Below are positions 1-18,774 of a DNA stretch of 64,000 nt, one piece after another. Each line of letters opens with the position of its first letter. Position 1 is the first letter of the stretch. The position numbers and the translations under genes were made by a program. Source of the DNA: a virus (taxonomy: Duplodnaviria > Caudoviricetes). The notes beneath the pieces were generated by a model, which searched no databases, was not told where the DNA came from, and was given only the letters and a program-made list of their open reading frames with translations. The stretch lies in the IMG/VR virus record IMGVR_UViG_3300028833_003520; one strand, given 5' to 3'.

Positions 1-443
1 TTGACTTCAGGACTATATTCATCAATGTCCTGTTTATATGTTACTATGTATCGTTCCCATTTCTTAAAGCAAGTAACGGGACGACGATTGGGGTGGATTG
101 CAAACTGAAACATCAAGGTGGATTCTACTGATTTCATTTCTTCATCAGTGATGTGACCAATGTACTGTGCAATCCTACTTTTATCAATTGTGTATAACTG
201 CTCGCATAATGCGAGTGCTTTCTTATCTGCCGACATAATCGGGACTTGCGTGGGACGAACAGGTTTGTTCTTCCTTTCTGTTCGCAGATAAACGACGGTA
301 ACTGTCTGCGAATATTTGTTAGCAACGTCATTGGAGATAACAAGTGCAGGTCTATCAGACCAAATTTCAGCACCAGTTGGCTTAACATCTCCGTCTGTTA
401 TGTGGTAGATATCACCCTTTAAGATAGTACGATTACTTGCCAT
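1..443 (-). CDS. PemK/MazF-family endoribonuclease with C-terminal extension (runs off the left edge; not in ORF track)
   Basis: Manual translation: MASNRTILKGDIYHITDGDVKPTGAEIWSDRPALVISNDVANKYSQTVTVVYL...ALCEQLYTIDKSRIAQYIGHITDEEMKSVE. Carries the GDIY, RPALVISN and EQ..IDK.R MazF motifs. Confidence 0.85.
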   Translation of the reverse strand, partial: MASNRTILKGDIYHITDGDVKPTGAEIWSDRPALVISNDVANKYSQTVTVVYLRTERKNKPVRPTQVPIMSADKKALALCEQLYTIDKSRIAQYIGHITDEEMKSVESTLMFQFAIHPNRRPVTCFKKWERYIVTYKQDIDEYSPEV

Positions 444-496
444 AGTTAATCCATACAAATATCCTTTCTGATTTCTTCATACTTTTTAGTTGCAGA

Positions 497-554
497 ACCA
501 TACGAAGTAGGGGATAGTAGCAAATGCCACTACCCCTACGAATTCGTATTTGGT
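497..554 (-). terminator. Long imperfect hairpin after the helicase stop (terminator or processing stem)
   Basis: Minus strand GTAGGGGTAGTGGCA-TT-TGCTACTATCCCCTAC, with outer TACGAA/TTCGTA and ACCA/TGGT pairing. The G-U pair favours the minus strand. Confidence 0.6.
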
Positions 555-3497
555 TTAAGGAACGGGATTGTTGTTCGGATTAGGCTGTGGTGTTGGCTGA
601 CCGAGGTTATAGTGACCGTCTGCGTCGTAGAAATCGTCGTCGATTTCTTCGAAGGTCATCTTACCCTGTTTAATCATATGTGTCTTACCGACCTTGCGTG
701 CCTGTTCCAAGTCCTTATCGTGCAAAGCCTTGCAGATAAGGTTGTAATCGCTCTGAATACGAGGTGTCTTTACAGTGTTGTAAGACAGGATGCATTCGGA
801 GTTCTTCGCTCTGGTGAATGCAACGTAGAACATACGCTTATCGTCTTCAGGTACACGATTATCAGTCTTGTGGATAATGATAACATTATCGAACTCAAGC
901 CCCTTTACAGAGTGAATGGTTGAGAAAATGAAGTTCTTGGTTGAATAATCTTCCAACTTCTTCTTTTCATTGTTCGTAGAGAGGAGAGACTGACGAATAG
1001 CGTTAGACTCAATCTCGTAAGCAAGAAGGCTTTCCTTAACCTCTTCGAGCAACTTATCTTTGGTGATGATGCCAGCCTGATACTGAGCAACTAATCCATT
1101 GACCGTATCGAAGTATTCTTCTTTCCAAGAGGCAAGCATCTTGGCGAGGGCAACCTGATTTTTCTGTTCATCACCGTGCATAATGTATGAGCAACGGTTC
1201 TGAATAGCCTGTTCAACACAGTCAAGGAAGTTCTGTGAAGGTACGAACTTGATTTCGTGCCAATACTTCTTAATGAATGTGCTGAATACACAAGAATCCA
1301 TAATTCTTTCAGGAATTATGTTTGCAGTAGTTGCCTGAGGATAAAGTGTCTTGATGGCATCTTCAGCCTTTTGAACTTCTCTACGCTTATAAGCGATGAT
1401 TGCAATTTGCTCACCTCTTGCAAGGCAAGCGTCAATGAACGGCTTGCAAGCACCACCGAGGTCGGGACCGATGTGATTCAAGTAGTCTCCTACTTTGGAA
1501 AGTCCCTGATACTGGAGATTGACTTTGTTACGGAAAGTTCTTTCTGTAACTTTAGCAAGACTGTTAGCGTGCAACTGAATGTGAGCAAACTGGTTTGCTT
1601 CAATGTCTGCAAGCGTGGAGTTCGCAAAGTCCAAAATCTCCTGATTACTACGGTAGTTAATCTGCAACTGATAAGTTGTGAATACGTTACTTCCTTCAAG
1701 GGCGTTCAAAGCCTTTGAGTCACTGCCTCTGAACTCGTAGAGTGTCTGTGAACCGTCACCTACGATAAAGAGTGATTCCTTATGCTTATCAACATACTTG
1801 ATAAGGTAGATGAACTCAAAGATTGAGTTGTCCTGTACCTCGTCAACGATGAGGAACTTACTCTGAACTTCGGGCGGTTCAACGAACGAATCAATCTTCT
1901 GATAGCAGATGATGATTTCAAGTTCAAGAGTAGTTTGACCAAGTGTGTCAAGCATATCTATTACTTTGTCGTAATTCTCTTCGACGAAAGCGTTGAGTTT
2001 TACCCACGCTCCTCTGACGTTATAAGCGATGTCGTAGAGCAATTCACTGAATCTTTCAGCCAGAGGGTTCTTCTGGAAGTAGATTTCCAAACAGTTCCTT
2101 ACTGTTGAGATGGATGAAAGTTCGTGCTTGCACTTCTTTTCGCCTGTATTGGGGTCAATAATGCTGAAATTCTCTGAGTAGATGGTGTGAATCATCTTTG
2201 CGATGGTCATCGAGTGAACCTGAGAGTTCAATTCAGAGATATGGTCAGCCGCAGCGTTGGTGAATGATAAGACGGTAATGTCTTCAGGCTTAATACCGCA
2301 GTTAATCATATAAAGCATACGACCATTGATTGCTGTGCTCTTACCTGTGCCTGCACCTGCCTGTACGAGTACAAGGGGTTCAGTTGTAGAAATAGCAACC
2401 TGCTGTTCCTTTGACCAACTGTGAGCCATAGTAGGAAGCGGTATTGCACCATTCGGCTTGCCGAGAGTATTAAGGAGTGCCTTGTTCTTGTTAAGGCTTG
2501 CGAGCGTATCGGAAAGAAGCAAATTCAGATTTGCCTTACAGATACGGGACACAACATCAGGCTGTGTACTGAAATACTTAACAAGAATATCGTAGATGTT
2601 ACGAGACATAGTAAGAGGTATCTGGTATCTTTCCAGGTCTCTTACAAGACGAATGATGATTGTTTCATCGTCGAGAGTGGCTCCTGTAACTCGGTTAGTT
2701 CTACGGTTTGTCTTGGGCTGAGCAATCAACTGCTTGATAAAGTCCTCAACCGTTTCACTGATAGTAGTGTTCCACTCTGTGGCACGCTTTGCAACAACTC
2801 CGTAAACGCTTAATGATGAGAAATAGTCGTCAATAGCGTTCATATCAATGGTAGCCGTTGCACGATTGGGGTTACCGTTCTTAAGTATCTGAATGAGTGT
2901 GTTATAAGGGTCACAGGAGAACTGTACGTCGTATCTATTCTTTGAATAGTCATCCAGTGCAGTGAAATCCAATCCCTTTTCGCACACGAGATTCTTTGAG
3001 TCAGCAATCGTGAAGAGGTTAATCTGATAGCAAGGCTGGAACTTGGATTCCTTTGTGCCATCTTTATGCGTTGTCTCTTCAAGAATGATACTGTGAATGT
3101 CGAGGCTTATGTAGATGTCAGCATTGACATTGTTCTTCTTGCCAACAATTGTACCAATCTTCTGCATAGTTGCGTCGAGATTAGGGTCAGGAGCCGTGCG
3201 GTAAAGATAGTAATCCCAAAGGTTGCAAGTTGCGTGTATCGGGATTGTATTAAGAGGAAGGAAGTAAGTCTTGGTATCACCACTGACTGTTGTGTCCTTC
3301 TTACAATGCAGATTGTTTGCATTAGTAGGACGATTCATCATAAGAGGATTCATCGGGTTGTTTGCTTCGCAGAGCAAACCAACTTTCTTACCGTTTCCTG
3401 TAAGGATAGGACTGAAAAACTTCGGTGAATACTCGATAACAGTCGCTACGCTTTGCTGATTAACCAGATTGTCAAGGTTACTAAAATCTATTGGCAT
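555..3497 (-). CDS. UvrD/PcrA-like SF1 helicase with ~350 aa unknown N-terminal region
   Basis: Motifs QAGAGTGKST, VLSFTNAAA, IVDEVQD, VGDGSQTLYEFRG, NYRS, STIHSVKGLEFD, FYVAFTRAK. Confidence 0.92.
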   Translation of the reverse strand: MPIDFSNLDNLVNQQSVATVIEYSPKFFSPILTGNGKKVGLLCEANNPMNPLMMNRPTNANNLHCKKDTTVSGDTKTYFLPLNTIPIHATCNLWDYYLYRTAPDPNLDATMQKIGTIVGKKNNVNADIYISLDIHSIILEETTHKDGTKESKFQPCYQINLFTIADSKNLVCEKGLDFTALDDYSKNRYDVQFSCDPYNTLIQILKNGNPNRATATIDMNAIDDYFSSLSVYGVVAKRATEWNTTISETVEDFIKQLIAQPKTNRRTNRVTGATLDDETIIIRLVRDLERYQIPLTMSRNIYDILVKYFSTQPDVVSRICKANLNLLLSDTLASLNKNKALLNTLGKPNGAIPLPTMAHSWSKEQQVAISTTEPLVLVQAGAGTGKSTAINGRMLYMINCGIKPEDITVLSFTNAAADHISELNSQVHSMTIAKMIHTIYSENFSIIDPNTGEKKCKHELSSISTVRNCLEIYFQKNPLAERFSELLYDIAYNVRGAWVKLNAFVEENYDKVIDMLDTLGQTTLELEIIICYQKIDSFVEPPEVQSKFLIVDEVQDNSIFEFIYLIKYVDKHKESLFIVGDGSQTLYEFRGSDSKALNALEGSNVFTTYQLQINYRSNQEILDFANSTLADIEANQFAHIQLHANSLAKVTERTFRNKVNLQYQGLSKVGDYLNHIGPDLGGACKPFIDACLARGEQIAIIAYKRREVQKAEDAIKTLYPQATTANIIPERIMDSCVFSTFIKKYWHEIKFVPSQNFLDCVEQAIQNRCSYIMHGDEQKNQVALAKMLASWKEEYFDTVNGLVAQYQAGIITKDKLLEEVKESLLAYEIESNAIRQSLLSTNNEKKKLEDYSTKNFIFSTIHSVKGLEFDNVIIIHKTDNRVPEDDKRMFYVAFTRAKNSECILSYNTVKTPRIQSDYNLICKALHDKDLEQARKVGKTHMIKQGKMTFEEIDDDFYDADGHYNLGQPTPQPNPNNNPVP

Positions 3498-3523
3498 TAT
3501 AGTTATCCTTTCTGTTTGTATTT

Positions 3524-3553
3524 ATTCTCCCTGCTGGTTAGAACAGGGAGAAT
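3524..3553 (-). terminator. Intergenic hairpin
   Basis: ATTCTCCCTG-N10-CAGGGAGAAT, perfect 10-bp stem. Confidence 0.5.
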
Positions 3554-3587
3554 GCCTTATTTGATTTTAAGTACGAAAGAGTTGGAG

Positions 3588-5651
3588 TCAAGTGTCACTA
3601 TCTTTATCGTTTGGCTCACTCTCGATTGGTGATGCAGATTTTGTATCATCAATGAGATAAGTAGAGTCAGATTCAACGATAGCGTTTTCAGTGAGAATAC
3701 TGCCATTATAGTAATTCGTGGAAGCCATTCTTTTTGCTTTAAGCATAAAGTTTTCTATGTATTCACGAACTGCTTTGTTAGCAGGGCGAGCACCGAATGA
3801 AGGTACATAAGTACGCTTAACTATTTCATCTAAATCTTTGTCAGGTATCTTGTCAGGGAGTTTGAGTGTTCTCTTTTCTGCCTTGATACGAGTGACTTCT
3901 CTTTCGTATATATCTACAACGATTTCTCTGTAGATATCTTCGTTCAATTCATTCATCTGAATGATATGGTCGAATCTATTCAGAAGTTCGTTATCAAACC
4001 ATTTGGACAATTCTTTGACTTCAGACTTGTAAGAAGTCTTTGCCTCTTCTGTGTTGAAGCCAAGAGGATTCTTGACTTCTTTGTGAGCAGCATTTGAAGT
4101 AGCAATGATAATTGCTTTTGAAAAGTCAATGACTTGACCGTTACGATTGCTCTTAATGTAGCCTTCATCAAAGGCTTGCATAAAGAGTCTCTGAACAGAT
4201 TTATGTGCTTTCTCTAACTCGTCAAGCAGAATAACTGCGTAAGGGTTAGATGCGAGTGAGTCGAACGGTAATTCTGCATTGGAATCACTTCCAATGAAAC
4301 CCACGACAGAACCAACAATCTTGTTGATACTATCTTCTCCTGAGAACTCTGTCATATTGAGGGTAATGATAGGCGAACTTGTTAAGTCTTTGCCAAGAAC
4401 CTTGGCAATTTCTGTCTTACCAACGCCTGAAGGACCGACAAGTAAGAATGTCAGAGGTTTCTTGTGTGGGAATAATTCAAAATCATTTCGTTCGACCGCA
4501 TTGCAAATTTCTGCAAGTGCTTCGTCCTGACCTTTGATGTATGAAAGGTCTCTTTCGAGGGCTTCGATATCAAGTTCAGTTTTCGAACTGGTTCCTGTCA
4601 TCATTCTGATGGCAGTTTTCTTGATTTGTTCAACGGTCAGACGGAAGAACGGCATACTGTGGATAGCGTCGATTGTATCTTGAGCACGCTGTCTATCTTC
4701 TGCAGTTTTTGCAAGTAATTTTTGAGTGGTCATTTCCTGTTCGGCAGTCTTATAGAACAAGATGGTATCAGCAATGGCTCTGTCCATCAGAGTAATTGCG
4801 GTATCAGGTCTATGATTGCCAGCGAGATGATAATCATCGGCGATTGCTACGAGGGCTTCAAGAATATCGTCTTTGAACTGAACTTTCTTATTGTAATGGT
4901 TGTAATAAGAAGGCTTAATGTCTTTCAGAATTTCGATAGTCTGAGACTTCGATAATTCATCAACGATAACTCTTGTAAATCTTCTGTTGAAAGCAGGATT
5001 ATCCATAAAGTCCTTGCTTTCCTGAAGAGTAGTAGAGCCGATAACTTTAATTTCGCCTCGTGCCAATGCAGGTTTCAAAATTTCTGCAATGTCAGTGTAA
5101 TGCCTTGCAGAAAGCATTAAATGTATCTCATCAATAAACAAGATTGCTTTGTTTTTCGGGTCTGATGCAAACTCTATAACGGCTTGCATTTTCTGCTCAA
5201 CCATACCAACTAAGGTACTGCCTGATACTATGTTCTGTAGAGGCAGAGAGTAGATGGTATAGCCTTTAAGCGAATCAGGTATGAGAGGGTCGTCGTTTTC
5301 AAGTCTGCGAGCAATATCTTCTACAATACAAGTTTTACCGACACCTGCGGAACCGATATACAAAGCGTTTGGCTTGTTTTTACCGATAAGAATGGAGAGT
5401 GTTTGTTCAATGATTTCGTCTCTGAATTTAATCGGAGTGGCATCTTTGAACATATCGTTGTAATTGATAAGCAGAGAGTCGAGCGAATTTTCTTCGCCTG
5501 TACCGTTAGAGTTTCTACTCGGTGCAATCACAATTACTCTGGGCTGACCATTATCTTCGTTGTTACCGCCGTTGTTTGTTCCATTGTCTTCAGGCGGTGG
5601 AGTGTTTTTCGATTTATCCGATGTCGGATTTGTAAAATTGTTGTAAGCCAT
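3588..5651 (-). CDS. ClpA/ClpC-like two-ring AAA+ ATPase lacking N-terminal Clp repeats
   Basis: Walker A/B twice (GSAGVGKT / ILFIDEIH; GPSGVGKT / ILLDELEKAH), LKPALARGE, and an LGF loop. Confidence 0.9.
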   Translation of the reverse strand: MAYNNFTNPTSDKSKNTPPPEDNGTNNGGNNEDNGQPRVIVIAPSRNSNGTGEENSLDSLLINYNDMFKDATPIKFRDEIIEQTLSILIGKNKPNALYIGSAGVGKTCIVEDIARRLENDDPLIPDSLKGYTIYSLPLQNIVSGSTLVGMVEQKMQAVIEFASDPKNKAILFIDEIHLMLSARHYTDIAEILKPALARGEIKVIGSTTLQESKDFMDNPAFNRRFTRVIVDELSKSQTIEILKDIKPSYYNHYNKKVQFKDDILEALVAIADDYHLAGNHRPDTAITLMDRAIADTILFYKTAEQEMTTQKLLAKTAEDRQRAQDTIDAIHSMPFFRLTVEQIKKTAIRMMTGTSSKTELDIEALERDLSYIKGQDEALAEICNAVERNDFELFPHKKPLTFLLVGPSGVGKTEIAKVLGKDLTSSPIITLNMTEFSGEDSINKIVGSVVGFIGSDSNAELPFDSLASNPYAVILLDELEKAHKSVQRLFMQAFDEGYIKSNRNGQVIDFSKAIIIATSNAAHKEVKNPLGFNTEEAKTSYKSEVKELSKWFDNELLNRFDHIIQMNELNEDIYREIVVDIYEREVTRIKAEKRTLKLPDKIPDKDLDEIVKRTYVPSFGARPANKAVREYIENFMLKAKRMASTNYYNGSILTENAIVESDSTYLIDDTKSASPIESEPNDKDSDT

Positions 5652-5681
5652 TGCAGTTACTATCCTTTTTGTTGTTGAAAT

Positions 5682-5726
5682 TACGGTAGGTTAGGGTGGA
5701 AGGCAAGCCTTCCAACCCTTACCGTA
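5682..5726 (-). terminator. Intergenic hairpin
   Basis: TACGGTA..AGGGT-GGAAGGC-AA-GCCTTCC-A-ACCCT-TACCGTA. Confidence 0.55.
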
Positions 5727-5732
5727 TTTGAA

Positions 5733-7439
5733 TCAGAAGAGAAGTTTTCTTCTGATATCGGGGTCAACGTGTAACATACTTTCACAGAAGCGTTCTGCTG
5801 ACTCTTTTTCCTCTTCGAAGTCAATACAACCGTATGATTCGAGAGGCAAGTAGTAGAGATTTCGGGGATGTTTAACGAAACGGTTCTGTCTCCATACCCA
5901 TTCAAAGTCAGTCATAATGATAGAGAATTCTCTCTTACGCTTATCGCTCTGATTGATGTAGTGCCAAATCTGCTCGTAATCTGTACCGCCGTCAACCTTT
6001 TTGATGCGGTTAAATTCGGCAAAGATTTCGGATAAGGTCTTATCACGACACTTAATAAGTGAATCGGAAGACAAACTATCGGAGAAACTGTTGAAGTATA
6101 AGTTCATATTAAACTTTTTGGCTAATATGATACAAGACTTGATAGCAGTCTGATAGTTCTGTTCACTAACGGAACCCGAAGTATCGAGGTAGATATGAAT
6201 ATCGGGTTTATAAGTGACTCGTGTAGTTTTACCTTGCAGATTGAAGTCTTCAGGCTTACGTCTGTTAGGGCGTGAGAAAGTATGAACTGTGTTCTTAAAG
6301 ATGTTCTCTGATGACTGAACCGCTTGCATTTTATCAAGAATGCTCTTGATGATAACAAGCATTTCTTCAGGAGTCGGCTGTTTCGTTCTGAACTTCATAG
6401 GCTTGCAAACGCCAGATGCTTTGTTATTCTGAAGCATCATTTCGGCTGCAACTACGGCTCCCTTTGCCGCCTTACGCAAATTCTTTGCGGATGCGGTAAG
6501 TCTGTTCAGTTCTTTCTGACTGGTTGTTGTAATCTTCATACTAACAGCCTGAGAGATAATGTCCCATTCATCACGGATGGATGTTGCAGACGCTCTTGAA
6601 TGTTTCTCAACATTTACAAGAGTGATTGTTCTTGGAGTGTAAAGTTCTCTCAATGAAAACGGTAGGCAACCGAACTCTGCGTCGGAGACCTGTTTGGTGT
6701 AGTTCATCAATGCGGCAACGATGATTCGTGCAAATGAGAACTCTTCTACGTTTTCATCAGGTAAGTCACGAAGAGCAAAGGTTTCAGTCAGGTTATCTAA
6801 CTTAACATTCATAAAGTCTTTTATGATGTTACAGGTGGCATTTGATAAAACTCCACTTGCGTACATAGGCTGAACTTGAATGTCGAACCAAGCCTTAAAA
6901 TCTTCGAACGACCTCTCGTTTACAAAGTAAAATCCGAGAGTATCAGGTCTTGCATAATATGCAAGGGCAACGAAGAACTTTTCGTATGAACATACTCCAC
7001 CCAAGAACTGTCTGGCTGTAGGGATTACATCCTGAGCAGGTGTGTAGATGATTGTCTGTGAAGGAAAGGGGAGAGGCGGCACGCCTGGGTGAGTCGCATT
7101 CTCCTTGACTAACGCCTGTACGGAGAACAGTGAATCAACAGGCATCTGAGGTGCCTTATCATAATAAATCATTGTGCTTGTCAGCAATTCCTTAACAGCA
7201 AGTTCAGCAGCAGGGTTGTTGTTGATGTAAGCATCAACAACGAGTGCCGTTATATCATCTTCTGTGAGTTTCTTGCCATTCGCCTGAATAGAGGCTTTGA
7301 CACGCTTAGAATGAGGAGTGAATAACGGTTTTACTATTGTCTCCTTGATGAAGGCAATAGGGTCGAAGTCCCCTGACGGCTTTGATGTGTAAATTGGTGA
7401 AAGCACGACAGGCTTATTATTACTTACACTAATAGCCAT
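5733..7439 (-). CDS. von Willebrand factor A (vWA) domain protein
   Basis: C-terminal MIDAS: IYLDTSGS, GGTD, IIMTD. Adjacent to a MoxR-type ATPase. Confidence 0.85.
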   Translation of the reverse strand: MAISVSNNKPVVLSPIYTSKPSGDFDPIAFIKETIVKPLFTPHSKRVKASIQANGKKLTEDDITALVVDAYINNNPAAELAVKELLTSTMIYYDKAPQMPVDSLFSVQALVKENATHPGVPPLPFPSQTIIYTPAQDVIPTARQFLGGVCSYEKFFVALAYYARPDTLGFYFVNERSFEDFKAWFDIQVQPMYASGVLSNATCNIIKDFMNVKLDNLTETFALRDLPDENVEEFSFARIIVAALMNYTKQVSDAEFGCLPFSLRELYTPRTITLVNVEKHSRASATSIRDEWDIISQAVSMKITTTSQKELNRLTASAKNLRKAAKGAVVAAEMMLQNNKASGVCKPMKFRTKQPTPEEMLVIIKSILDKMQAVQSSENIFKNTVHTFSRPNRRKPEDFNLQGKTTRVTYKPDIHIYLDTSGSVSEQNYQTAIKSCIILAKKFNMNLYFNSFSDSLSSDSLIKCRDKTLSEIFAEFNRIKKVDGGTDYEQIWHYINQSDKRKREFSIIMTDFEWVWRQNRFVKHPRNLYYLPLESYGCIDFEEEKESAERFCESMLHVDPDIRRKLLF

Positions 7440-7486
7440 ATCTTTTTCCTTTCTGAAATATGGTATGTTACATTATGGACTAAATA

Positions 7487-8764
7487 TTAGCCCATAATGT
7501 AACTGAGTGACTGTGCGAGAGGTGTGTTGGAATTGAGTACGGACTCAACATTTCCAGAATCAAGCATATCCTTTGAGTAAAGTCCCATAAGAGTCTTGAG
7601 GTCAACGGGGTCCATCTTCTTGATTTCAGTTACCAACTGAGTGATGTAGATTTCGTTGTCTTCCTTCTCATACATAAGGTAGAGCATACAACCTGACTTC
7701 TCACCGTCTGTCATCTTTGAGATGAAGTCGTTGAGAGAGTTTACATCCTTGCACTTCTTGAAATCGTCGTAGCAAGAAGGCTTAGGTACTGTAACAGAAG
7801 TATTGCTACCGTTACCGAGATTAGCGACGTTGCTTGTGATTTCTGCATAGAGAAGAGCAGCAAATGCGGTTTGACCGACAACTGCTTCGATAATGCCCTG
7901 AAGAGCACTCTTATCGGGAACATTTTCTCCTACCTTCTGTACAGTGTTGATACGAGCATAGAACTCGTCCTTTGTGTACATATTGAGTTTCTGTGAAAGA
8001 GCCTCAATGCTTCGAGGTGATGTAAAAGGTACACTTCTACCTTCGTCGAGAAGTTCCTCAATGTCAAACTCGTTGTTATTATCAGGGTCAGAAATCTGAC
8101 CAGTAGCAGAGATAGAGATTGACTTCTGAAGCAGACATTCAGGATGCTTAACGAGTACATTCTTAATGTAGATGTTAAGGTCAGGAACTACTTCGAGGAA
8201 TGTATCGAGGTCGGGCTTTACGTGAATCCAGAACAGTCTGTTAATAACAGCGTCATCAACGGTTGTAACGTGTCCCTTATCATTACCCGAAAGCATAATC
8301 TTCAGGTTATCAGGAAGAGCGAATGTACCGATAACTCTCTGAGTTGCAAGGTTGAGAAGTGAGGACATAACGTCAGCAGGAACTCTGTTGAACTCATCGA
8401 GGAAGAGAATAGGAGTTTCTCTCGGATTGTCGATAGCGTACATAATAGCGTCAGTAATTTCCTGACGAGGATAGAAGTTTGTCTGATACTGCAAACCACT
8501 ATTGAAAAGGTCTGTTGAGTTCTTACCCTTAAGAGTCTTGGGGTCGATAGGAATAAGTCTCTGACCTGTAAGGTCGGCTCTATCTACCAACTGGTTACAA
8601 GGAATGGTGAATGCCTTTGTGTGCATCTCGTTTGCGAGTGCAAGAACGAAGGAAGTCTTACCAATACCAGGCTCTCCGAGTAAGCAGGGCAAGGCTCTTG
8701 TCTGAAGAGTCTTCTTGATTTCATCAGTAAGCAGGGGACCAAACTGGAAGTTCACATCATACAT
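7487..8764 (-). CDS. MoxR/AAA_5-like AAA+ ATPase
   Basis: GEPGIGKT, LFLDEFNR, SGN, DDAVINR, SPRS. Start moved to ATG 8764 after AAAGGAG. Confidence 0.88.
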   Translation of the reverse strand: MYDVNFQFGPLLTDEIKKTLQTRALPCLLGEPGIGKTSFVLALANEMHTKAFTIPCNQLVDRADLTGQRLIPIDPKTLKGKNSTDLFNSGLQYQTNFYPRQEITDAIMYAIDNPRETPILFLDEFNRVPADVMSSLLNLATQRVIGTFALPDNLKIMLSGNDKGHVTTVDDAVINRLFWIHVKPDLDTFLEVVPDLNIYIKNVLVKHPECLLQKSISISATGQISDPDNNNEFDIEELLDEGRSVPFTSPRSIEALSQKLNMYTKDEFYARINTVQKVGENVPDKSALQGIIEAVVGQTAFAALLYAEITSNVANLGNGSNTSVTVPKPSCYDDFKKCKDVNSLNDFISKMTDGEKSGCMLYLMYEKEDNEIYITQLVTEIKKMDPVDLKTLMGLYSKDMLDSGNVESVLNSNTPLAQSLSYIMG

Positions 8765-8816
8765 AATAGTTTCTCCTTTAATTTTTATCGTTTGATGATG
8801 TAATGTGTTGTTACTC

Positions 8817-8836
8817 AAAAAAGCAGTGTTGCTTTT
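8817..8836 (-). terminator. Small intrinsic terminator-like hairpin upstream of the AAA gene
   Basis: Minus strand AAAAGCA-ACAC-TGCTTTTTT. Confidence 0.4.
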
Positions 8837-8988
8837 AAGAATCATAAATAGTACATAAATCTATAAACTTATAGATTCGCTTTTGGGCTTACACTCCTTT
8901 ATGTGTAAGAACCAAAGGCAGTTCGAAAGTTATGGGCAATAACTTGCGATTAGGGATTTTGAAGGTATGTGTTCAATATTAAAAATCG

Positions 8989-9017
8989 TTGATATATCAA
9001 CCAATTTATGCTAATAT
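8989..9017 (+). promoter_or_regulatory. sigmaA-type promoter for the plus-strand hydrolase
   Basis: TTGATA-N17-TAATAT with extended TGn. Confidence 0.55.
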
Positions 9018-9052
9018 TGAATGTGAATTATATGAGGAAAGAGAGGTATATT

Positions 9053-9655
9053 ATGACAGGCAAAAGTCATTTGGCGGCAAATATTGGAACAGCAATTTAT
9101 TGCACGAATGCTATGGTATATGCTGTTTGTTTTGCTCCACCAATGATTGCAAAAATTGCAAATGAAGGACTGCATTATTTTGCTGGCTCTGGAGATAATA
9201 CCCCTTTAGTTCTTTATATCATAGCGAGTGTTGGTTTTTATCTTTTAGGAACATTACTTCCTGATATAGATAAAGACACTTCTATGATTTCACAGATATT
9301 TCACTTTCACATACCGATAGAACATCATACGTGGACACACTTGGTTTATTGGGCGTTAGCGTTTATTCCTTTGGGATTAGTGTTTCGACCAATAATGTTT
9401 CTGCCAATCGGTTATGTTTTACATCTTGTGGCAGATAGTTTTTCTGTGTGTGGCAACTGTTGGTTTGTTCTTAATTATCGTCGTTATGGCGATAATGGTG
9501 CAAAGGTGAAGAAAGGACATATCCTGAAACTTTACCAAACAGGCAAAGCCTCGGAATATGTCCTCGTAAGTGTTTTCTTCACTTTAGCCGTTGTGATGTG
9601 TATCTACTTTTACAAAGAAGATATTTACCGAACGGCATTAGATGTCATCATCTAA
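9053..9655 (+). CDS. Membrane-bound metal-dependent hydrolase (YdjM/DUF457-like)
   Basis: MTGKSH, GTLLPDID, HHTWTH, LHLVAD motifs and hydrophobic helices. SD GAGAGG. Confidence 0.8.
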   Translation: MTGKSHLAANIGTAIYCTNAMVYAVCFAPPMIAKIANEGLHYFAGSGDNTPLVLYIIASVGFYLLGTLLPDIDKDTSMISQIFHFHIPIEHHTWTHLVYWALAFIPLGLVFRPIMFLPIGYVLHLVADSFSVCGNCWFVLNYRRYGDNGAKVKKGHILKLYQTGKASEYVLVSVFFTLAVVMCIYFYKEDIYRTALDVII

Positions 9656-10558
9656 GTGGTCTGACGCAAGCCAAGCATTCATTACACGCTCGAATGATTG
9701 AGTATCACCCATAAGCCTATCGGCGAATAATTCGACAGGAATATATCGGGTTTCAATCTTTGGAGCGTTTTCGAGTGTAGCAGGCTCGTTTTCATCTTCA
9801 TTATCTGTGTCAGGAATGAAAGCGATAGCGACTGTTCCGATGTCACCTTGACGAAGGATATTAAGGTCGATACAACGGTTGGTGATGTAAACGAGATTGT
9901 CAAACTGGTTCTTGGTGCCGTACAGATAACTTGCGAAATTCTCCAAATCTGACTCAACATACTTGTTTGTGTAGGTATGGAGAATGGTGCAGTTTTCAGA
10001 GAACATTTCGTTGTGATTGATGATTTCATCAAGACGTTTCTCAAATTCAGAGAACTGTTTGTCTTCATCAGCACGTCTTTTCTCAAAGATTGTGTAAGCC
10101 TCGTATTCTTTAGCCTCTTTCTCTGGAAGGAGTGCTAATTCTTCTTCAGAAAGAGATGAAGGTGGTGTGTAGGACTCTACTGTATAACCGACTGCTCTTG
10201 AGATTGCTTTGTTACGAGCAATATCTGTATCGGATTTCATATAGACGAGATGGAAACTGAGGTCAGGGCGATTAGCAATGAGTTCATAGAATCCCTTGGG
10301 GTCTATGATGTAAACATCGCATTCTTCAAGTTGCTTTTCTGTGGCGAAGTATTCATATTCACCAATCTTTGTGTATGCAATACAGTTTACCTGTTTTGCT
10401 TTTGATTCAGACGGGTCAATGAAAGTGTGAGTGTCTTCAGTAGGAGAACGCTTAGGACGAGTTGCATACGATTTGAGGATATTCAGTCCTCTCTGTTCAA
10501 GCATACGAGCAAGCGTATCTTTTCCTGTTCCTGAACGACCGACAATCAGATATTTCAT
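9638..10558 (-). CDS. Guanylate kinase-like P-loop protein
   Basis: IVGRSGTGKDT, SYATRPKR, YIIDPKG. Long C-terminal extension. Confidence 0.75.
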   Translation of the reverse strand: MKYLIVGRSGTGKDTLARMLEQRGLNILKSYATRPKRSPTEDTHTFIDPSESKAKQVNCIAYTKIGEYEYFATEKQLEECDVYIIDPKGFYELIANRPDLSFHLVYMKSDTDIARNKAISRAVGYTVESYTPPSSLSEEELALLPEKEAKEYEAYTIFEKRRADEDKQFSEFEKRLDEIINHNEMFSENCTILHTYTNKYVESDLENFASYLYGTKNQFDNLVYITNRCIDLNILRQGDIGTVAIAFIPDTDNEDENEPATLENAPKIETRYIPVELFADRLMGDTQSFERVMNAWLASDHLDDDI

Positions 10559-11601
10559 AATCCGAGGTCTCCTTTCGTAATGGCATCGTTGCCAGTGTAG
10601 TGTTTTTCTGTAGGATTGTCCGATGTAGCGGCAATACCTAAAAGGTCAACCGAAGGAATGGTTGAAGGTAAGTCAGGTTTCCAAATAGCAATGTTAACAT
10701 CTTTGTTGATAGCGTTACGGTTAATCAAAGTTGAGATGATAGTAATTGCGTAGTCCTTGAATTCCTGTTCGGTAGCGTTATGTTCTTCCATATATTTCTG
10801 CTTGTTAAAGCAGATATAAGCACCGTGACGAGAATCCAGAGGGATGATGTAGATAATGTCGCAATCAAAGACATTTTTAGAAATACCTTCAACAAGTTCG
10901 CTTCGAAGCATATATGCATATTCTGCGAAGTCAGAGTAATTGGTAAACAGAATAAGTTTGAAATCATTGGGGAACTTAATTTGTGCTTCACCAATCTGCA
11001 TAGCAGCCTTTGATAAGGTGTTACCCCAAACGCTGTTGTAAAGACCTCTATCGAATGCATAGTTGCTCCAATCATCTTTGTCGCCACCGTTGTTTTTGTA
11101 AACACATAGCGGTTCGGCGTTATCAAAGGTGATATTAGAATAGAAGTCTCCGTTAGGAGCAATACCTGTTAATGTTTTGAAGTATAAGACGAGTCCGAAT
11201 TCGTCTAATTCAATACGAGAAACATCTTTAGCGTATTCTTGCGGTACATCAGCCAGAGGCATTGCGGCAACAATGGTGGTATGGTTGAATGTGGCGTTAT
11301 CACGCCAAGCAGCATTGCAGAGATTCTGAGGCAGTGTGTTGATTGAATTATTGGCACCAATGCAGATACTCATCATAGAGGCTTCTGAGCCATCGTAATT
11401 CTGTGATAGTTCTTCAATGTATAAACAGGGACAGTTTTTTTCGTCTCCTTTGATTTGAAAAACGATACCGTGACCATTATTCGTATGAATAAGGTTAGGT
11501 TTGATACTTTCAACACGAGTTACGAGGACATTATTCTTTATAATCTTGGTCTCAAAGCATCGCTTGAATTCTTCGAAAAATTCGTTGATGTTAATCTTCA
11601 T
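10555..11601 (-). CDS. Hypothetical protein
   Basis: 348 aa ORF with SD AAGGAG, coupled to neighbours. Confidence 0.8.
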   Translation of the reverse strand: MKININEFFEEFKRCFETKIIKNNVLVTRVESIKPNLIHTNNGHGIVFQIKGDEKNCPCLYIEELSQNYDGSEASMMSICIGANNSINTLPQNLCNAAWRDNATFNHTTIVAAMPLADVPQEYAKDVSRIELDEFGLVLYFKTLTGIAPNGDFYSNITFDNAEPLCVYKNNGGDKDDWSNYAFDRGLYNSVWGNTLSKAAMQIGEAQIKFPNDFKLILFTNYSDFAEYAYMLRSELVEGISKNVFDCDIIYIIPLDSRHGAYICFNKQKYMEEHNATEQEFKDYAITIISTLINRNAINKDVNIAIWKPDLPSTIPSVDLLGIAATSDNPTEKHYTGNDAITKGDLGL

Positions 11602-11613
11602 TGGTGAGTCTCC

Positions 11614-12252
11614 TTATTTAAGTTCTGATTGCAATTCAACAAGTCTATTAAAGTCAGATTGATTGAACACAATGTTTCCATTGAGGTCTTGATAATATAA
11701 GACTTTCTTGGTGTATTCTAATGCACCATTATAAGTATATGCTCTTAAGTATATACCTGAAGGGACTTCGCTGACAGGGTATTGTTCGAGCAAGGCTTGT
11801 CCTTGTGGAGAACGAGATGAGATAAAGTAGATGTTATCTACGTTGGCTGAAGCAGCCATTAAATCATCGTAAATAGCCCTGCAATCAGGACAGTCAAAAC
11901 GGTAGTAGATGATAATTGTGCCTGGAGTAAGTTCAGTAGGGAGTGTATCTTCAACAGGCGAGTGACTGATGCCATCATACATAGTCGCAATAGTCATATC
12001 ACGAGTGTATGCTCCGTGTTTGACAGCAATAGCATAACTTGCATTGAGTACGACCATACTGATGAGACTTAATGCTGTAATTATTCCAAGTGCAACAATT
12101 ACTCTTTTCTTGGCTTTTTGAGCCGTATCTTTGATGCCTTTTCTGAACTTACGAATAGTGTCAATGAGTATAATGACGATGATAATGATACCAATGAGTG
12201 AAATGAAATAGGTAGCATTTACAGCGTCATCTAACTTCAAAGTGCTAAACAT
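11614..12252 (-). CDS. Membrane-anchored thioredoxin-fold protein
   Basis: Two N-terminal TM helices, FDCPDC (CxxC), and a VP cis-Pro-like motif (EVPS). Confidence 0.7.
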   Translation of the reverse strand: MFSTLKLDDAVNATYFISLIGIIIIVIILIDTIRKFRKGIKDTAQKAKKRVIVALGIITALSLISMVVLNASYAIAVKHGAYTRDMTIATMYDGISHSPVEDTLPTELTPGTIIIYYRFDCPDCRAIYDDLMAASANVDNIYFISSRSPQGQALLEQYPVSEVPSGIYLRAYTYNGALEYTKKVLYYQDLNGNIVFNQSDFNRLVELQSELK

Positions 12253-14723: not shown

Positions 14724-15815
14724 TTACTGAATGTAAGCACTTCTGCTATCTGCGGCAGGGTCATAACGAATACCGCCCTGAGGCTGAGCCTGTGTCTGCT
14801 GTCCAGGGTTGTACATAGCACCACCCTTTGCAGGGTCATATGCCTGCGGAGCCTGAGGAGCAGGCTGAACGGGTGCGTTCTGTGCAGGATTGTAAGGTGC
14901 GTTAGGAACTGCCTGTGTCTGCTGAACAGGTGCGTATGCTCCGTTCTGTGCAGGGTTATACGGCTGTCTGTTTGCACTATAAGGCTGTGCAGGAGCAGGA
15001 GTATTCTGAATAGGCTGCTGAACGGGTGCACTCTGTGCAGGGTTGTAAGGAGCGTTTGTAGGCTGTGCCTGATACTGAGGCTGAGCCTGAGGCTGTGCCT
15101 GATACTGCTGAACGGGTGCGTTCTGTGCAGGATTGTAAGGCTGACCAGCAGAAGGCTGTGCATAACCTACATTCGGCTGATAAAGTGCCTGCTGTGCAGG
15201 GTTGTAAGGCTGACCGTTAGGTTCTGCCTGAGGATGAATACGTCTATCGTAGCCCTGAAGCGGTACGAATGTTGCTCCAGAATCAGCGAAAGCCGTGCCT
15301 GCACGATAGATAGGCTCCTCTTCGCAGATGATGTCGTTAAGAGTACAACCGCAACCTGCGTAGTTCTTGCTCTTGAATGTACGGACTGTCATAGTGACTG
15401 TCATTCCCTGTGCAAGTTCACCTTCAGGTCTAATCTCAACCAACTGATTGCCACGACGAACGGCTACGATAGGAAGGGTGTTACCCTTGTTAACATAACT
15501 GCACCAAAGTCCCTTTGATGTGTCGTAGTTAATCTTGTCTGCCTGCTTCGGATAGTAGAGACGCTCGGCGATGTACTGCTCTTCAAGAGTAGGGTTCTGA
15601 GGGTCTTTGAATACTACCTCTGCGAAGTTGATGGTGAGAGATGTGTGCGGCTTGTCAATAGGGGACATACCCATATTAACTCTGCGTGCATTGGTGTTCT
15701 CAAGTTCCTTGCCCTGAATCTGTGAGGTAACTCTGCAATACTGCACCTTACCTCTGATATGGACTGTTTCGTTAGGTCTAATCATTGTCTTCGTGATTTT
15801 CTTCTCATTACTCAT
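14724..15815 (-). CDS. Putative ssDNA-binding protein with long Q/P/A/N-rich repeat tail
   Basis: Beta-rich ~180 aa N-domain next to the primase. Tail has repeated PYNPAQ. Start at 15815 after AAGGAG. SSB call is inference. Confidence 0.55.
   Translation of the reverse strand: MSNEKKITKTMIRPNETVHIRGKVQYCRVTSQIQGKELENTNARRVNMGMSPIDKPHTSLTINFAEVVFKDPQNPTLEEQYIAERLYYPKQADKINYDTSKGLWCSYVNKGNTLPIVAVRRGNQLVEIRPEGELAQGMTVTMTVRTFKSKNYAGCGCTLNDIICEEEPIYRAGTAFADSGATFVPLQGYDRRIHPQAEPNGQPYNPAQQALYQPNVGYAQPSAGQPYNPAQNAPVQQYQAQPQAQPQYQAQPTNAPYNPAQSAPVQQPIQNTPAPAQPYSANRQPYNPAQNGAYAPVQQTQAVPNAPYNPAQNAPVQPAPQAPQAYDPAKGGAMYNPGQQTQAQPQGGIRYDPAADSRSAYIQ
14864..15140. repeat. Coding degenerate tandem repeats (PYNPAQ units)
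   Basis: Identical 34-mer GCTGAACGGGTGCGTTCTGTGCAGGATTGTAAGG at 14864-14897 and 15107-15140, with degenerate copies between. Confidence 0.9.
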
Positions 15816-16092
15816 AATGAATTTTCTCCTTAAATGTAGATTCGTAATTCTTAGTTCGTAATTTCGATTCGATATTCGGCTCAAATAATTATTCGAAAAG
15901 TAGGTGCGACAAATAAATATTTTTGCAAAAATATGTATTCGACTGTGCGAAATAAGTTAAGTTGGTGTGAGATTGCTCCGCTACTTAATCTCAGAATTTT
16001 AAGCGGAAGATAGTTAGCCCATTGGTCTCACTCCTTTCTTGTTCTGGATTTATACTTGAAACATAATCACAGGTAAAATATTATATTTTAAC

Positions 16093-16181: not shown

Positions 16182-16814
16182 ATGAAAAACGAACGAGTCA
16201 TCATCACTGTGGTTGGCGTGACTGCCACCCTTGCAGTAGCGGTTGGTGCCTTCTTCGTTGTCCGTGAAGTAGTGTTCGATACACAGACGGTTCGAGCAGC
16301 AGAAATAGCAGACCAATGCGTTGAATATACTGAAAAGTATAACGAGATGGCTGGACTGTACTATAATGCTATGAACCCGAAGCCGACTACTACAACAACT
16401 ATCGAAACTAAGATTACTGGTGATGTATCTGTCACAGTAACTCAAGACGGTACAGTTATTGCGGATAACAACGGAAGTCCTGACGGCTCTGTCAAAGTTG
16501 ACGTGACCGTTGGTAGCGATGGGTCGGTTAATGTCGGTGTGGATGTTCCTCCCGAACAACCGCCTGAAGAACCTGCTGAACAGCCTGTAATCGTCGATGG
16601 AGAGGAAATCTACATCAGTCAGATTACGACAGTAGCGGAGAACGGAGACTTGATTTACAGAATCAAGTGGGGCGATACATTGTGCCGAATTTCACGTATT
16701 TTCGGTTACTCTGTACAAGAACTTGCAGAATACAATCATATCAAGAACCCTGACCTGATATATGCGGATTCTACACTCCGAATTCCGACTTCAAAGTCGA
16801 AGCCGAACGGTTAA
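16182..16814 (+). CDS. Membrane-anchored LysM-domain protein
   Basis: N-terminal TM helix. C-terminal YRIKWGDTLCRIS...VQELAEYNHIKNPDLIYADSTLRIP. Confidence 0.88.
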   Translation: MKNERVIITVVGVTATLAVAVGAFFVVREVVFDTQTVRAAEIADQCVEYTEKYNEMAGLYYNAMNPKPTTTTTIETKITGDVSVTVTQDGTVIADNNGSPDGSVKVDVTVGSDGSVNVGVDVPPEQPPEEPAEQPVIVDGEEIYISQITTVAENGDLIYRIKWGDTLCRISRIFGYSVQELAEYNHIKNPDLIYADSTLRIPTSKSKPNG

Positions 16815-16839
16815 AACCTGAATTTATGATAGACACTTG

Positions 16840-16867
16840 GAAAGGCACCCTGTAAGGGGTGCTTTTC
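16840..16867. terminator. Bidirectional intrinsic terminator between convergent genes
   Basis: GAAAGGCACCC-TGTAA-GGGGTGCTTTTC. Confidence 0.75.
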
Positions 16868-18691
16868 TTATGTGTCGATTATGCGTTTTATTGCTTCAAG
16901 GGTTTTAATTTGAGCGTTCTTATAGTCGTCTAAAACTTGCTTGATTTGAAGTATCTTGTCTTCATCGGTAGCAGACGCAATCGCTTGAATTGCAGTCTCG
17001 ATGATGTTCTGTGCATCCTGTATAGCAGGTGGACTTGGAACGATGGCAAGATTGTCAGGTGAAGAAATACCGTTCTGACTATAATCCATTCCATCAGGCG
17101 ACTGAATCGCATAGGTCGGTTGGGCAGGATAGGACGGTGTTACTTCATAGGTGTTAGGCGGTACAGGAGTGACATAGTTATTGTCAATATCGAGTTCTGA
17201 TGTGAGGTCTGCTAATATAGCAGTTGTATCAATATCAGACATTATCTGTACGCCGTTAGCCGATACATTCGTTTCAAGAGTTTCGTAAAGTTCGCATTTA
17301 ACAGAGTCAATGAGGGCTTCTTGTGATGTGTCTTTTCGTTCAATATTCGCCCAAGAACGAAGGTCATAAGTACCCTGAACCATAAGGTGATGTACCATAG
17401 TAGGATAAATAGCACCTTGGCGGTTAAGTCGTTTGATACACTGTTTATATTCCTCAAGCGATTGAGGAAGGGTGTACCAAATGAGTGTATGACCGCCATC
17501 TTGGAGATTTAAGCCGTGTCCTGATGAGGCTGGCTGAACGAGAAGAACTTTAATCTTACCTTCGTTCCATCTTTTCTTCATTTTTGGCGAACCATCAAAT
17601 TGCTCAAAAGGAATCTTAAGTTTAGTTAAGTAATCCTTTAGCATTTTGAGGTCTGAATAGTAATGGTAGGCAACCATTACATTGTCATCTGTATTGTTAA
17701 TGATATACTCAGTTGCTTCGAGTTTCTTTTCGTGTATCTTAAAGAACTCGTGACTACCTGACTCTTTGTATAGAGCACCTGAAGCCATTTGTTGCAGTCG
17801 CCCTGCAAGGACGGCGGCATTGGCTGCGGTAATCTCTTCACCATCAATTTCTAAAACGAGGTCTTCTTTGAACCGTTTATACATATTCATCTCATTATCG
17901 TCGAGATAAAGAGGTATGAAATTGAGGTTGATAGGTGGGATATACATTGAGGAGTTTTTCATAGAGATAACGAGGTCGCTTATAAGGCGGAATATCTCTT
18001 GTTCGGCTCCTGGAATGGGTTTCCATCCCATCTTCTTGCCAGGCACTTTTGGTGTTTCAAAACGCTCTCTAAAGCGTGTGATACAATCACCAAGACGGTA
18101 ACCCATATCAAGTAGCCAAGTTTCAGCCCAAAGGTCTTCAATGCCTTTAGGCATAGGAGTACCTGTGAGTCCGATAAGACGCTCGATATAAGGTCTTACT
18201 TTCTGTAAGGCTTGGAATCGGTCCGAGTCATAAGACTTGAACGATTGTATTTCGTCAATGATAACGGTAGGAAAGTACCACACAGGAGAAATTCTGTTTA
18301 ATACTTTGTCGTAGAATGTGGGCATATTTTCTATGAGGTCAACAACAAGGTCTCGGTTGATAAACCAGACTGTAGGTGGCTCATTAGGAATACTCTTGTA
18401 TAATGCTAATCGTTTTTTACGAGTTAGTTTATTTCCACGTTCATTGACGATAAGAGATTTGTATCTAAAGGGATAATTCCATTTTTCAATCTCTTCAACC
18501 CAAGTCGAACGAGCAATGTTCTTGGGTGCAATTATCAGTATATGATGATTGGGATTTATATCGTCCATTGCATCTAAAGTAGTGCGTGTTTTGCCTAAAC
18601 CCATATTCAAGAATAAGGAACAGTATGGATGAGTTAGAATGAAGTCTTTTGCAACCTGTTGATGTGGTAGCAAAGGTGTTTGTGATTCCAT
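16868..18691 (-). CDS. Phage-type SNF2 family helicase
   Basis: MGLGKT, IIDEIQ, GLTGTP, SGHGLNLQ, RLNRQG motifs. Confidence 0.9.
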   Translation of the reverse strand: MESQTPLLPHQQVAKDFILTHPYCSLFLNMGLGKTRTTLDAMDDINPNHHILIIAPKNIARSTWVEEIEKWNYPFRYKSLIVNERGNKLTRKKRLALYKSIPNEPPTVWFINRDLVVDLIENMPTFYDKVLNRISPVWYFPTVIIDEIQSFKSYDSDRFQALQKVRPYIERLIGLTGTPMPKGIEDLWAETWLLDMGYRLGDCITRFRERFETPKVPGKKMGWKPIPGAEQEIFRLISDLVISMKNSSMYIPPINLNFIPLYLDDNEMNMYKRFKEDLVLEIDGEEITAANAAVLAGRLQQMASGALYKESGSHEFFKIHEKKLEATEYIINNTDDNVMVAYHYYSDLKMLKDYLTKLKIPFEQFDGSPKMKKRWNEGKIKVLLVQPASSGHGLNLQDGGHTLIWYTLPQSLEEYKQCIKRLNRQGAIYPTMVHHLMVQGTYDLRSWANIERKDTSQEALIDSVKCELYETLETNVSANGVQIMSDIDTTAILADLTSELDIDNNYVTPVPPNTYEVTPSYPAQPTYAIQSPDGMDYSQNGISSPDNLAIVPSPPAIQDAQNIIETAIQAIASATDEDKILQIKQVLDDYKNAQIKTLEAIKRIIDT

Positions 18692-18774
18692 CAGTATTCA
18701 TATCCTTTCTTTAGAATTTAATGCCGTAATAACATTGTGGATTTGCGTACAGCAAATGAGTTTGTTGGCAAACT

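Follow-up and report, generated by a model that had tools for sequence, protein, structure and literature searches.

A conserved MoxR ATPase, vWA adaptor, Clp ATPase and helicase gene block on giant conjugative-type elements

The stretch of DNA filed as virus record IMGVR_UViG_3300028833_003520 (Duplodnaviria; Caudoviricetes; 64,000 nucleotides, called the window) carries in its left 8.8 kb five consecutive minus-strand open reading frames, which we call the block. They encode a MoxR-type AAA+ ATPase (AAA), a von Willebrand factor A-type adaptor protein (vWA), a Clp/Hsp100 ATPase (Clp), a UvrD-type helicase and a MazF-like endoribonuclease. Our analysis shows that the first four genes form a core conserved far beyond chance, that MazF is an accessory member, and that the element carrying them is a conjugative-type megaplasmid or an integrative and conjugative element, not a phage. 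The explanation we favour, at a probability of about one half, is that the block is a core backbone module of giant conjugative-type elements (Corynebacterium glutamicum CGP3, Gordonia pGKT2, integrated Streptomyces and Arthrobacter copies, and 100-250 kb rumen and gut elements) and works as a remodelling or degradation unit coupled to the processing or establishment of the element's DNA. An earlier note on this DNA had proposed a five-gene NTP-driven system and knew of no characterised system with this architecture; our literature search likewise found no paper describing the four-gene block.

Relatives were found by an alignment-based scan with the vWA protein, a single-protein pattern scan of IMG/VR having given none. 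The window proteins were then compared by tblastn with 80 related loci, of which 74-78 were informative. In the informative loci, which come from Actinomycetota, Firmicutes and IMG/VR contigs, the order AAA-vWA-Clp-helicase recurs without exception at 30-50% identity (medians of 37-47% for the four core proteins across the 80 loci): AAA lies directly upstream of vWA in 78/78 loci, Clp downstream of vWA in 77/77, and the helicase after Clp in 74/74. Copies on plasmids (pGKT2, Rhodococcus fascians, Streptomyces) keep the same order at 28-40% identity, pGKT2 itself at 28-30%. The earlier note would have given up its proposal had the genes not been syntenic elsewhere; their order is found in every informative locus and in two phyla. 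A primase gene lies upstream in 68/76 loci, and in two Lachnospiraceae loci (L071 and L079) it has been relocated beyond MazF, with the block left intact.

The junctions differ in tightness. Gaps of at most 400 bp were found at 76/78 AAA/vWA junctions, 52/77 vWA/Clp junctions and 17/74 Clp/helicase junctions, and the long gaps are filled by unrelated genes (methyltransferase-like, rve/Mu-type transposase, TetR regulator and unknowns). Because such cargo genes sit at the other junctions in many relatives, the AAA and vWA genes are the only obligate pair, and the remaining genes could either belong to one machine with them or be linked backbone genes. MazF was present in only 14/65 loci and is therefore optional, so that the five-gene unit of the earlier note shrinks to four genes and its helicase-plus-RNase effector is not a conserved design. 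All open reading frames of the block have been assigned, and no extra conserved one was found in it. Among individual loci, a Streptomyces chromosome copy (L027, 13482-15053) has an rve/Mu-type transposase between vWA and Clp. In L072 (Arthrobacter sp. Hiyo8, 8664-11675) the AAA and vWA genes are recovered in several tblastn pieces, as is the helicase gene in L066, L068, L069 and L070; these split genes look like decaying copies or frameshifts.

The element is best recognised from its relatives. The vWA protein occurs in 8 IMG/VR contigs of 35-252 kb and in 72 species genomes, more than 55 of them from Actinomycetota and complete chromosomes among them. The actinomycete carriers are Streptomyces, Arthrobacter, Pseudarthrobacter, Nocardiopsis, Kribbella, Microbacterium and others; further carriers include Lachnospiraceae, Oscillospiraceae, Bacilli and Muribaculaceae metagenome-assembled genomes. 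In PLSDB the vWA protein is found on plasmids of Gordonia sp. KTR9 (pGKT2, 182 kb), Rhodococcus fascians (270 kb) and Streptomyces (639 kb). Giant open frames of VirD4 type, 1210-1442 aa long, are present in relatives; a search of relatives for VirB4-type AAA_10 gave none, and an atypical transfer system is possible. Searches of the complete relatives for HK97 capsid, TerL_ATPase and Terminase_6N found none of them. In a later paper's citation of Jung et al. 2011 (PMC5640721), pGKT2 is given as having moved between actinomycetes in the laboratory. Since the relatives are plasmids or integrated, carry VirD4-like genes, include the transferred pGKT2 of that account and yielded neither capsid nor terminase, the element is not a phage, and the jumbo-phage frame into which the earlier note had put the MoxR-vWA pair falls away.

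The alpAC genes are common to pGKT2 and the C. glutamicum 'prophage' CGP3 (PMC4446434), and cg1980 inside CGP3 has been annotated as a MoxR-like ATPase (PMC5055667); we infer the homology of CGP3 to the window genes through pGKT2 and the shared alpAC. Near-identical DNA was present in metagenomes of 14 studies, taken from the rumen and gut of sheep and cattle. The element is sporadic: among 401 genomes of one actinomycete order, a sample that probably does not include C. glutamicum, the vWA gene was found only in the genome from which the search had started. In IMG/VR the records from which L002 and L003 derive are classed as viruses, 100% complete and with terminal repeats; neither capsid nor terminase was found in them, the L003 record carries a VirD4-like gene, and records of this type are probably a misclassified plasmid family. 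A huge-phage reading had also been considered from PHROG matches in the window (NrdD, clamp loader, primase, integrase). It was dropped, as GenBank phages (50,697 records) gave no match to 9 kb searched by megablast or to the vWA protein searched by tblastn, and no capsid or terminase was found in the complete relatives; the Clp matches in jumbo phages are generic, at about 30% identity.

The block genes were identified by Pfam, NCBIfam and PHROGs searches of the open reading frames (Table 1). What the earlier note had read from the letters holds here to a large extent: all five open reading frames exist, the spacers between them are short (47-96 bp), the NTPase motifs of AAA, Clp and helicase are intact (conserved Walker A/B and helicase motifs), the Clp, UvrD and MazF-like ribonuclease calls are borne out by the domain models, and the vWA protein has a complete MIDAS (metal ion-dependent adhesion site) and a vWA fold confirmed by model comparison. 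The end coordinate that the note gave for the block is also the likely true start of the AAA gene, because AAAGGAG lies 7 nt upstream and the homologues begin there.

Table 1. Features of the block and its leader in the window (coordinates from the first letter of the window).
Feature	Coordinates	Strand	Evidence or remark
MoxR-type (AAA_5) AAA+ ATPase	7487..8764, open reading frame open to 8845	-	Pfam AAA_5 7e-11
Two-domain vWA adaptor, 568 aa	5733..7439	-	MIDAS residues, AlphaFold2 model; Pfam silent
Class-I Clp/Hsp100 double-AAA+ ATPase, 687 aa	3588..5651	-	Pfam and NCBIfam
UvrD/PcrA-type superfamily 1 (SF1) helicase, 980 aa	555..3497	-	Pfam UvrD-helicase and UvrD_C
MazF/PemK-like endoribonuclease, cut by the window's edge	3..443	-	PemK_toxin PF02452 1.9e-23
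Spacer hairpin helicase/MazF, without U-tail	497..554	-	-33 kcal/mol, z -5.9
Spacer hairpin Clp/helicase, without U-tail	3524..3553	-	z -4.3; perfect 10-bp stem
Spacer hairpin vWA/Clp	5682..5726	-	-25 kcal/mol, z -3.8
Hairpin ahead of vWA, overlapping the AAA stop codon	7467..7503	-	17-bp stem, -23 kcal/mol, z -6.5
Leader and divergent promoter region ahead of the AAA gene; three small hairpins	8765..9007	-	

The AAA protein has the Walker A motif GEPGIGKT and the Walker B motif LFLDEFNR; both, together with sensor-1 and TPRTI, are kept in 27 homologues. Its nearest solved relatives are the midasin AAA modules and NorQ, both of the MoxR clade, and in Pfam it matches AAA_5 only, with no CbbQ_C domain. 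The MIDAS residues of the vWA protein (DTSGS, T486, D511) are invariant in 133 sequences. Its AlphaFold2 model (predicted local distance difference test, pLDDT, 85) consists of a confidently modelled N-domain (residues 1-300), a disordered linker (303-345) and a C-terminal vWA domain, which resembles integrin I, the Rea1/MDN1 MIDAS domain and the NorD vWA domain at Z 9-10 (139-169 residues aligned, root-mean-square deviation 3.5-4.3). PF09967 (DUF2201 vWA-like) was matched by 14/18 homologues with a best E of 1.6e-5, the window protein staying below threshold. A profile search of 1.84 billion representatives found 236 proteins of this family, and 438 metagenomic homologues were found. Because there are only 236 representatives, and because, among the 150 listed, nearly every one has a length of 540-610 aa, the family of the vWA N-domain appears to be closed and of fixed architecture. 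In whole-protein fold searches the vWA domain swamped the signal of the N-domain. The N-domain does not match PF13203 and has no HExxH, the homologue alignment showing a conserved NVE.H only; an ESM-feature similarity of 0.82-0.83 to the DUF2201_N metallopeptidase is a weak lead.

The Clp protein has two AAA+ modules (D1 and D2), with Walker A and Walker B conserved in both. In D2 the GYVG-type pore loop is conserved, and in D1 the family has [ILV]-V-G instead of the aromatic residue (27 homologues). After the D2 sensor-1, where ClpA/C/X have their ClpP-docking loop, stands an [LIV]-G-[FL] tripeptide (LGF in the window; IGF, VGF, LGF or IGL in nearly all 27 homologues), which by its motif and position is of ClpP-docking type and a candidate contact for ClpP. 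The best solved match is ClpE (1e-80, in one continuous stretch). Since this alignment and that to ClpA are continuous while ClpB matches in two pieces, the protein has no M-domain. No Clp_N N-domain was found, the match to the ClpA model starting at model position 158; residues 1-46 (window 3588-3725) are an N/G/P-rich low-complexity stretch in place of the N-domain, and its length varies among homologues. Two relatives encode a ClpP of their own, G001 (C1:137122-137661, E 1e-78) 17 kb and G002 (C1:39832-40374, E 1e-74) about 145 kb from the block. The extra ClpP copies in host genomes are not near the element.

The helicase core lies at residues 360-915 and retains SF1 motifs I-VI (GAGTGKS, DEVQD, VGD.SQ..Y.FR, NYRSN, STIH..KGLEF, YVA.TRA), PcrA being the closest solved relative. 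It is preceded by an N-domain of about 350 residues, which opens with the conserved peptide MPI.LD...PKFFS..LTG.GK..GLL, a motif not shared with other proteins of the element. The N-domain was modelled at pLDDT 81 and a predicted template modelling score (pTM) of 0.78. Fold searches with this model did not turn up a similar structure (Z at most 5.3; Foldseek E no better than 0.03), which does not prove a new fold, and with the N-domain alone as query a word-index search, limited in kind, found only a near-identical protein. The MazF-like protein keeps the motifs RP...SN, T and CEQ..VDK.R and has a conserved C-terminal extension; no open reading frame for an antitoxin lies in the 96-bp spacer upstream of it. 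MazF adjoins the helicase gene in L004 and L071. In L001 the MazF-like protein has a 90-residue coiled-coil-like tail, and downstream of it (16425-19639) follow a RarA/MgsA-like AAA+ ATPase, overlapping the end of the MazF gene, and a uracil-DNA glycosylase.

The spacers are less telling than the earlier note had supposed. It had reported a strong hairpin in three of them; strong hairpins are indeed there, and the number has to be raised, as all four internal spacers carry one (-22 to -33 kcal/mol, z -3.8 to -6.5; for each spacer 0/200 shuffles were as good). Each block gene has a Shine-Dalgarno site of its own and a spacer delimited by a hairpin. Relatives have hairpins between the same genes too, with unrelated sequences. 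As arguments for a functional unit, hairpins and common orientation have no weight: 26/42 spacers of the window hold a hairpin at -15 kcal/mol or lower, and nearly every gene of the 64 kb lies on the minus strand, which makes co-orientation uninformative. The block hairpins lack U-tails, which makes a role as attenuators or RNA stabilisers more likely than one as full terminators; inspection by eye found no evident GNNCA hairpin loop among the block hairpin loops. A scan of the AAA leader region for sigma-70 promoters found no convincing site, the count not exceeding that of shuffled sequence.

RNA-library contigs from three studies include the block, at about one tenth of the depth of the SSB-like gene, and a contig of 20-22 kb with uniform depth, from two runs of one sheep sample, spans it. 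Such depth is compatible with low expression of the block and also with DNA carry-over. In the metatranscriptome assemblies of the three studies the SSB-like gene (window 14724-15884, minus strand) is about 10-fold deeper than the rest of the window's first 15 kb, and contigs are interrupted at the jump in depth near this gene, at 14.9 kb.

The block is neighboured by genes for an SNF2 helicase, an SSB-like protein, a primase, a dUTPase and NrdD/NrdDG (RarA-like and uracil-DNA glycosylase genes in L001). The leader ahead of the AAA gene is common to this gene and a plus-strand one (9008-9655), which encodes a YdjM-like membrane hydrolase of LexA-regulon type, is the sole nearby plus-strand gene and diverges from AAA; this divergent arrangement is repeated in the low-GC loci L003, L004, L005, L008, L009, L058 and L078. 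Next to it (9638-10558, minus strand) lies a gene for a protein of 306 aa that matches a PHROG guanylate kinase at 3.9e-24, has no Pfam match and is kept in 3 related loci only.

The favoured reading, a remodelling or degradation unit, is preferred because the block lies within the train of SNF2, SSB-like, primase, dUTPase and NrdDG genes. How the parts would be coupled, and on what substrate, we infer as follows. The AAA/vWA pair would capture a protein through its MIDAS and remodel it or pass it to Clp; the Clp unfoldase, probably together with ClpP, would unfold or degrade this target; and the PcrA-like helicase would unwind the element's own DNA during replication, transfer or establishment. 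PcrA unwinds rolling-circle plasmids and ICEBs1. The shared task would likely be to clear or reshape a protein bound to the element's DNA in replication, transfer or establishment in a new cell. MazF would be an optional add-on, and the hairpins would punctuate a read-through gene train as attenuators or stabilisers, with no special switch. It is also plausible that the block has its task in replicating or processing the DNA of the element itself, because it lies in a collinear train of SSB-like, primase and helicase genes. A precedent by analogy for a MoxR-type ATPase at plasmid entry may be seen in Vcrx089-090 (PMC7498323, PMC11602122).

Several points weigh against this reading. A tie between the four proteins, physical or genetic, is presumptive. 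Only the AAA/vWA junction is tight and the inserts at the others are unrelated, so co-transcription is not required. The RNA-library contigs that span the block, possibly DNA carry-over, cannot prove transcription or an operon. ClpP was found neither in the 64-kb window nor in pGKT2. Finally, the SSB-like and primase genes upstream come close to the block in collinearity, and the fixed order may be one of the backbone in general.

This last point leads to the alternative that survives best, though we consider it somewhat unlikely, namely that there is no joint machine and that four independent housekeeping genes are kept in order by the backbone. The order held by the SSB-like and primase genes would fit, as would the mixed insertions (one insertion sequence included) at the vWA/Clp and Clp/helicase junctions, the separate Shine-Dalgarno site and hairpin-delimited spacer of each gene, and the presence of such hairpins across the whole window; set against these are an adjacency and order that hold without exception in some 80 loci from two phyla, at identities as low as 28%, a block that stays together where the primase has moved, and the fact that MoxR-vWA pairs elsewhere act with a third partner (PMC7159879).

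At the other extreme, and improbable in our view, the four proteins would make up one dedicated ATP-driven machine private to giant self-transmissible Gram-positive elements, in which MoxR/vWA seizes a DNA-bound protein, the helicase tracks the DNA by means of its private N-domain, and Clp unfolds the target or feeds it to ClpP. Targets may in that case be a covalently bound relaxase, the xenogeneic silencer Lsr2/CgpS or a host restriction complex.

ClpXP degrades HsdR in the restriction alleviation of E. coli, and this counts in favour of counter-defence on entry, a further reading to which we give little credence. Here the AAA/vWA pair, possibly with Clp, would neutralise or degrade restriction or immune proteins of the host in the recipient, and the helicase and repair genes would protect the incoming DNA. 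The conjugative-type nature of the element and the ClpP-docking-type loop of Clp agree with it, and Vcrx089 is itself a conjugative plasmid's AAA_5 ATPase, whose action in the recipient is directed at type I and some type II restriction-modification (PMC7498323, PMC11602122). The AAA protein nevertheless has no CbbQ_C, and when it was compared by tblastn with 72,556 plasmids, no IncC plasmid was among the matches of E 1e-3 or better; anti-defence genes known so far are mostly variable while the block is invariant, and the surroundings are genes of replication and nucleotide metabolism, with no identified leading region.

The earlier note had put forward anti-phage or element-exclusion defence, with a machine gating a helicase-plus-RNase effector; in this reading the ATPases would gate a helicase and MazF effector that aborts infection. 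The toxin fold of MazF speaks for it, as does the place of MoxR-vWA pairs at the core of conflict systems (PMC7159879). The PADLOC check that the note had called for was run: in PADLOC-DB 2.0 the helicase matches GajB and DRT models and Clp D2 matches DolB and PDC-M37B, but these reflect generic UvrD and AAA similarity, and AAA, vWA and MazF have no match. MazF is missing in 51/65 loci; no VMAP, iSTAND, FtsH or beta-propeller component and no variable effector accompanies the block; and the vWA domain ends its protein, in an architecture fixed across 236 representatives (150 listed). The link to conflict systems thus fails, the third components and variable effectors of the MoxR-vWA systems being absent (PMC7159879) and the block being invariant backbone and not island cargo. 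Given the unspecific PADLOC matches, the absent components and effectors, the invariance and the backbone position, the defence reading is weakened and now very unlikely.

Most improbable of all is a jumbo-phage chaperone set for virion or replisome assembly, since the viral listing of relatives with terminal repeats in IMG/VR, the PHROG matches, the best BFVD matches (phage peptidase-plus-vWA proteins) and the role that has been proposed in group 2.2 jumbo phages for their MoxR-vWA pairs and demonstrated in Acidianus two-tailed virus (PMC7824862) are opposed by the lack of any match in the GenBank phage records, of capsid and terminase in complete relatives, and by plasmid or integrated relatives with VirD4-like genes, one of which, pGKT2, transfers between cells on the cited account.

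In a wider context, CGP3 of an industrial C. glutamicum, the explosive-degrading plasmid pGKT2 and hundreds of soil, rumen and gut elements of 100-250 kb appear to be one poorly described family of giant elements, which databases file as 'prophage' or 'virus'. The invariant block of four motors, which includes two domains without recognisable relatives, is probably essential to the replication, movement or settling of these elements in new hosts, and its role would help to explain how large catabolic and accessory gene sets spread in Gram-positive bacteria. With a Clp unfoldase and a helicase coupled to it, the MoxR-vWA adaptor principle could prove to have a new use in this block. If the four proteins did form a single machine, this would be a bacterial counterpart of the eukaryotic handling of DNA-bound proteins by helicase, AAA+ unfoldase and protease.

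Among known systems, the MoxR-vWA-centric ternary conflict systems of VMAP, iSTAND, FtsH and beta-propeller types (Kaur, Burroughs, Iyer, Aravind 2020, PMC7159879) resemble the block in that MoxR AAA+ and MIDAS-vWA genes stand side by side and have another conserved partner, and in the FtsH type a second, double AAA+ unfoldase is added. In the block, by contrast, the third partner is Clp/Hsp100 and the fourth a UvrD helicase, the vWA domain is C-terminal behind a fixed private N-domain, VMAP, iSTAND and effector domains are lacking, and the genes lie on the backbone of a mobile element and not in a conflict island. The IncC/SXT hde pair Vcrx089-090, which on IncC plasmids serves anti-restriction and acts in the recipient (PMC7498323, PMC11602122), likewise joins an AAA_5-type ATPase to a partner protein and is encoded on a conjugative element, in the company of genes for SSB and DNA processing. 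It differs in showing no detectable specific homology and in CbbQ_C, which is absent here; the partner in the block is a vWA protein followed by Clp and the helicase, whereas ssb-bet-exo follows there. Its role is the sole experimentally assigned one that we found for a MoxR-type ATPase on a conjugative element, and may serve as an analogy.

The pairs of MoxR and metallopeptidase-plus-vWA proteins in jumbo phages, and the tail-assembly MoxR-vWA pair of Acidianus two-tailed virus (PMC7824862), share with the block a two-domain adaptor with a DUF2201-type vWA at the C-terminus, and the best BFVD matches are such phage proteins; here, in contrast, the N-domain is without HExxH and PF13203, and the element is not a virus. 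Judged by its motifs, Clp would resemble ClpA/ClpC/ClpE in two active AAA+ rings, a GYVG-type D2 loop, the [LIV]G[FL] loop and the lack of the ClpB M-domain, and differs in having no Clp_N or zinc-finger N-domain and [ILV]-V-G in place of the D1 aromatic; from ClpB/Hsp104 it is set apart by the missing long M-domain and the ClpP-type loop. The helicase has all SF1 motifs of PcrA/UvrD, with PcrA as closest solved relative, and differs in the extra 350-residue N-domain, which is without structural match, and its conserved N-terminal peptide motif. Taken together, the MoxR-vWA theme itself is known, and what is new is a conserved, unpublished block of four genes, or five with the optional MazF.

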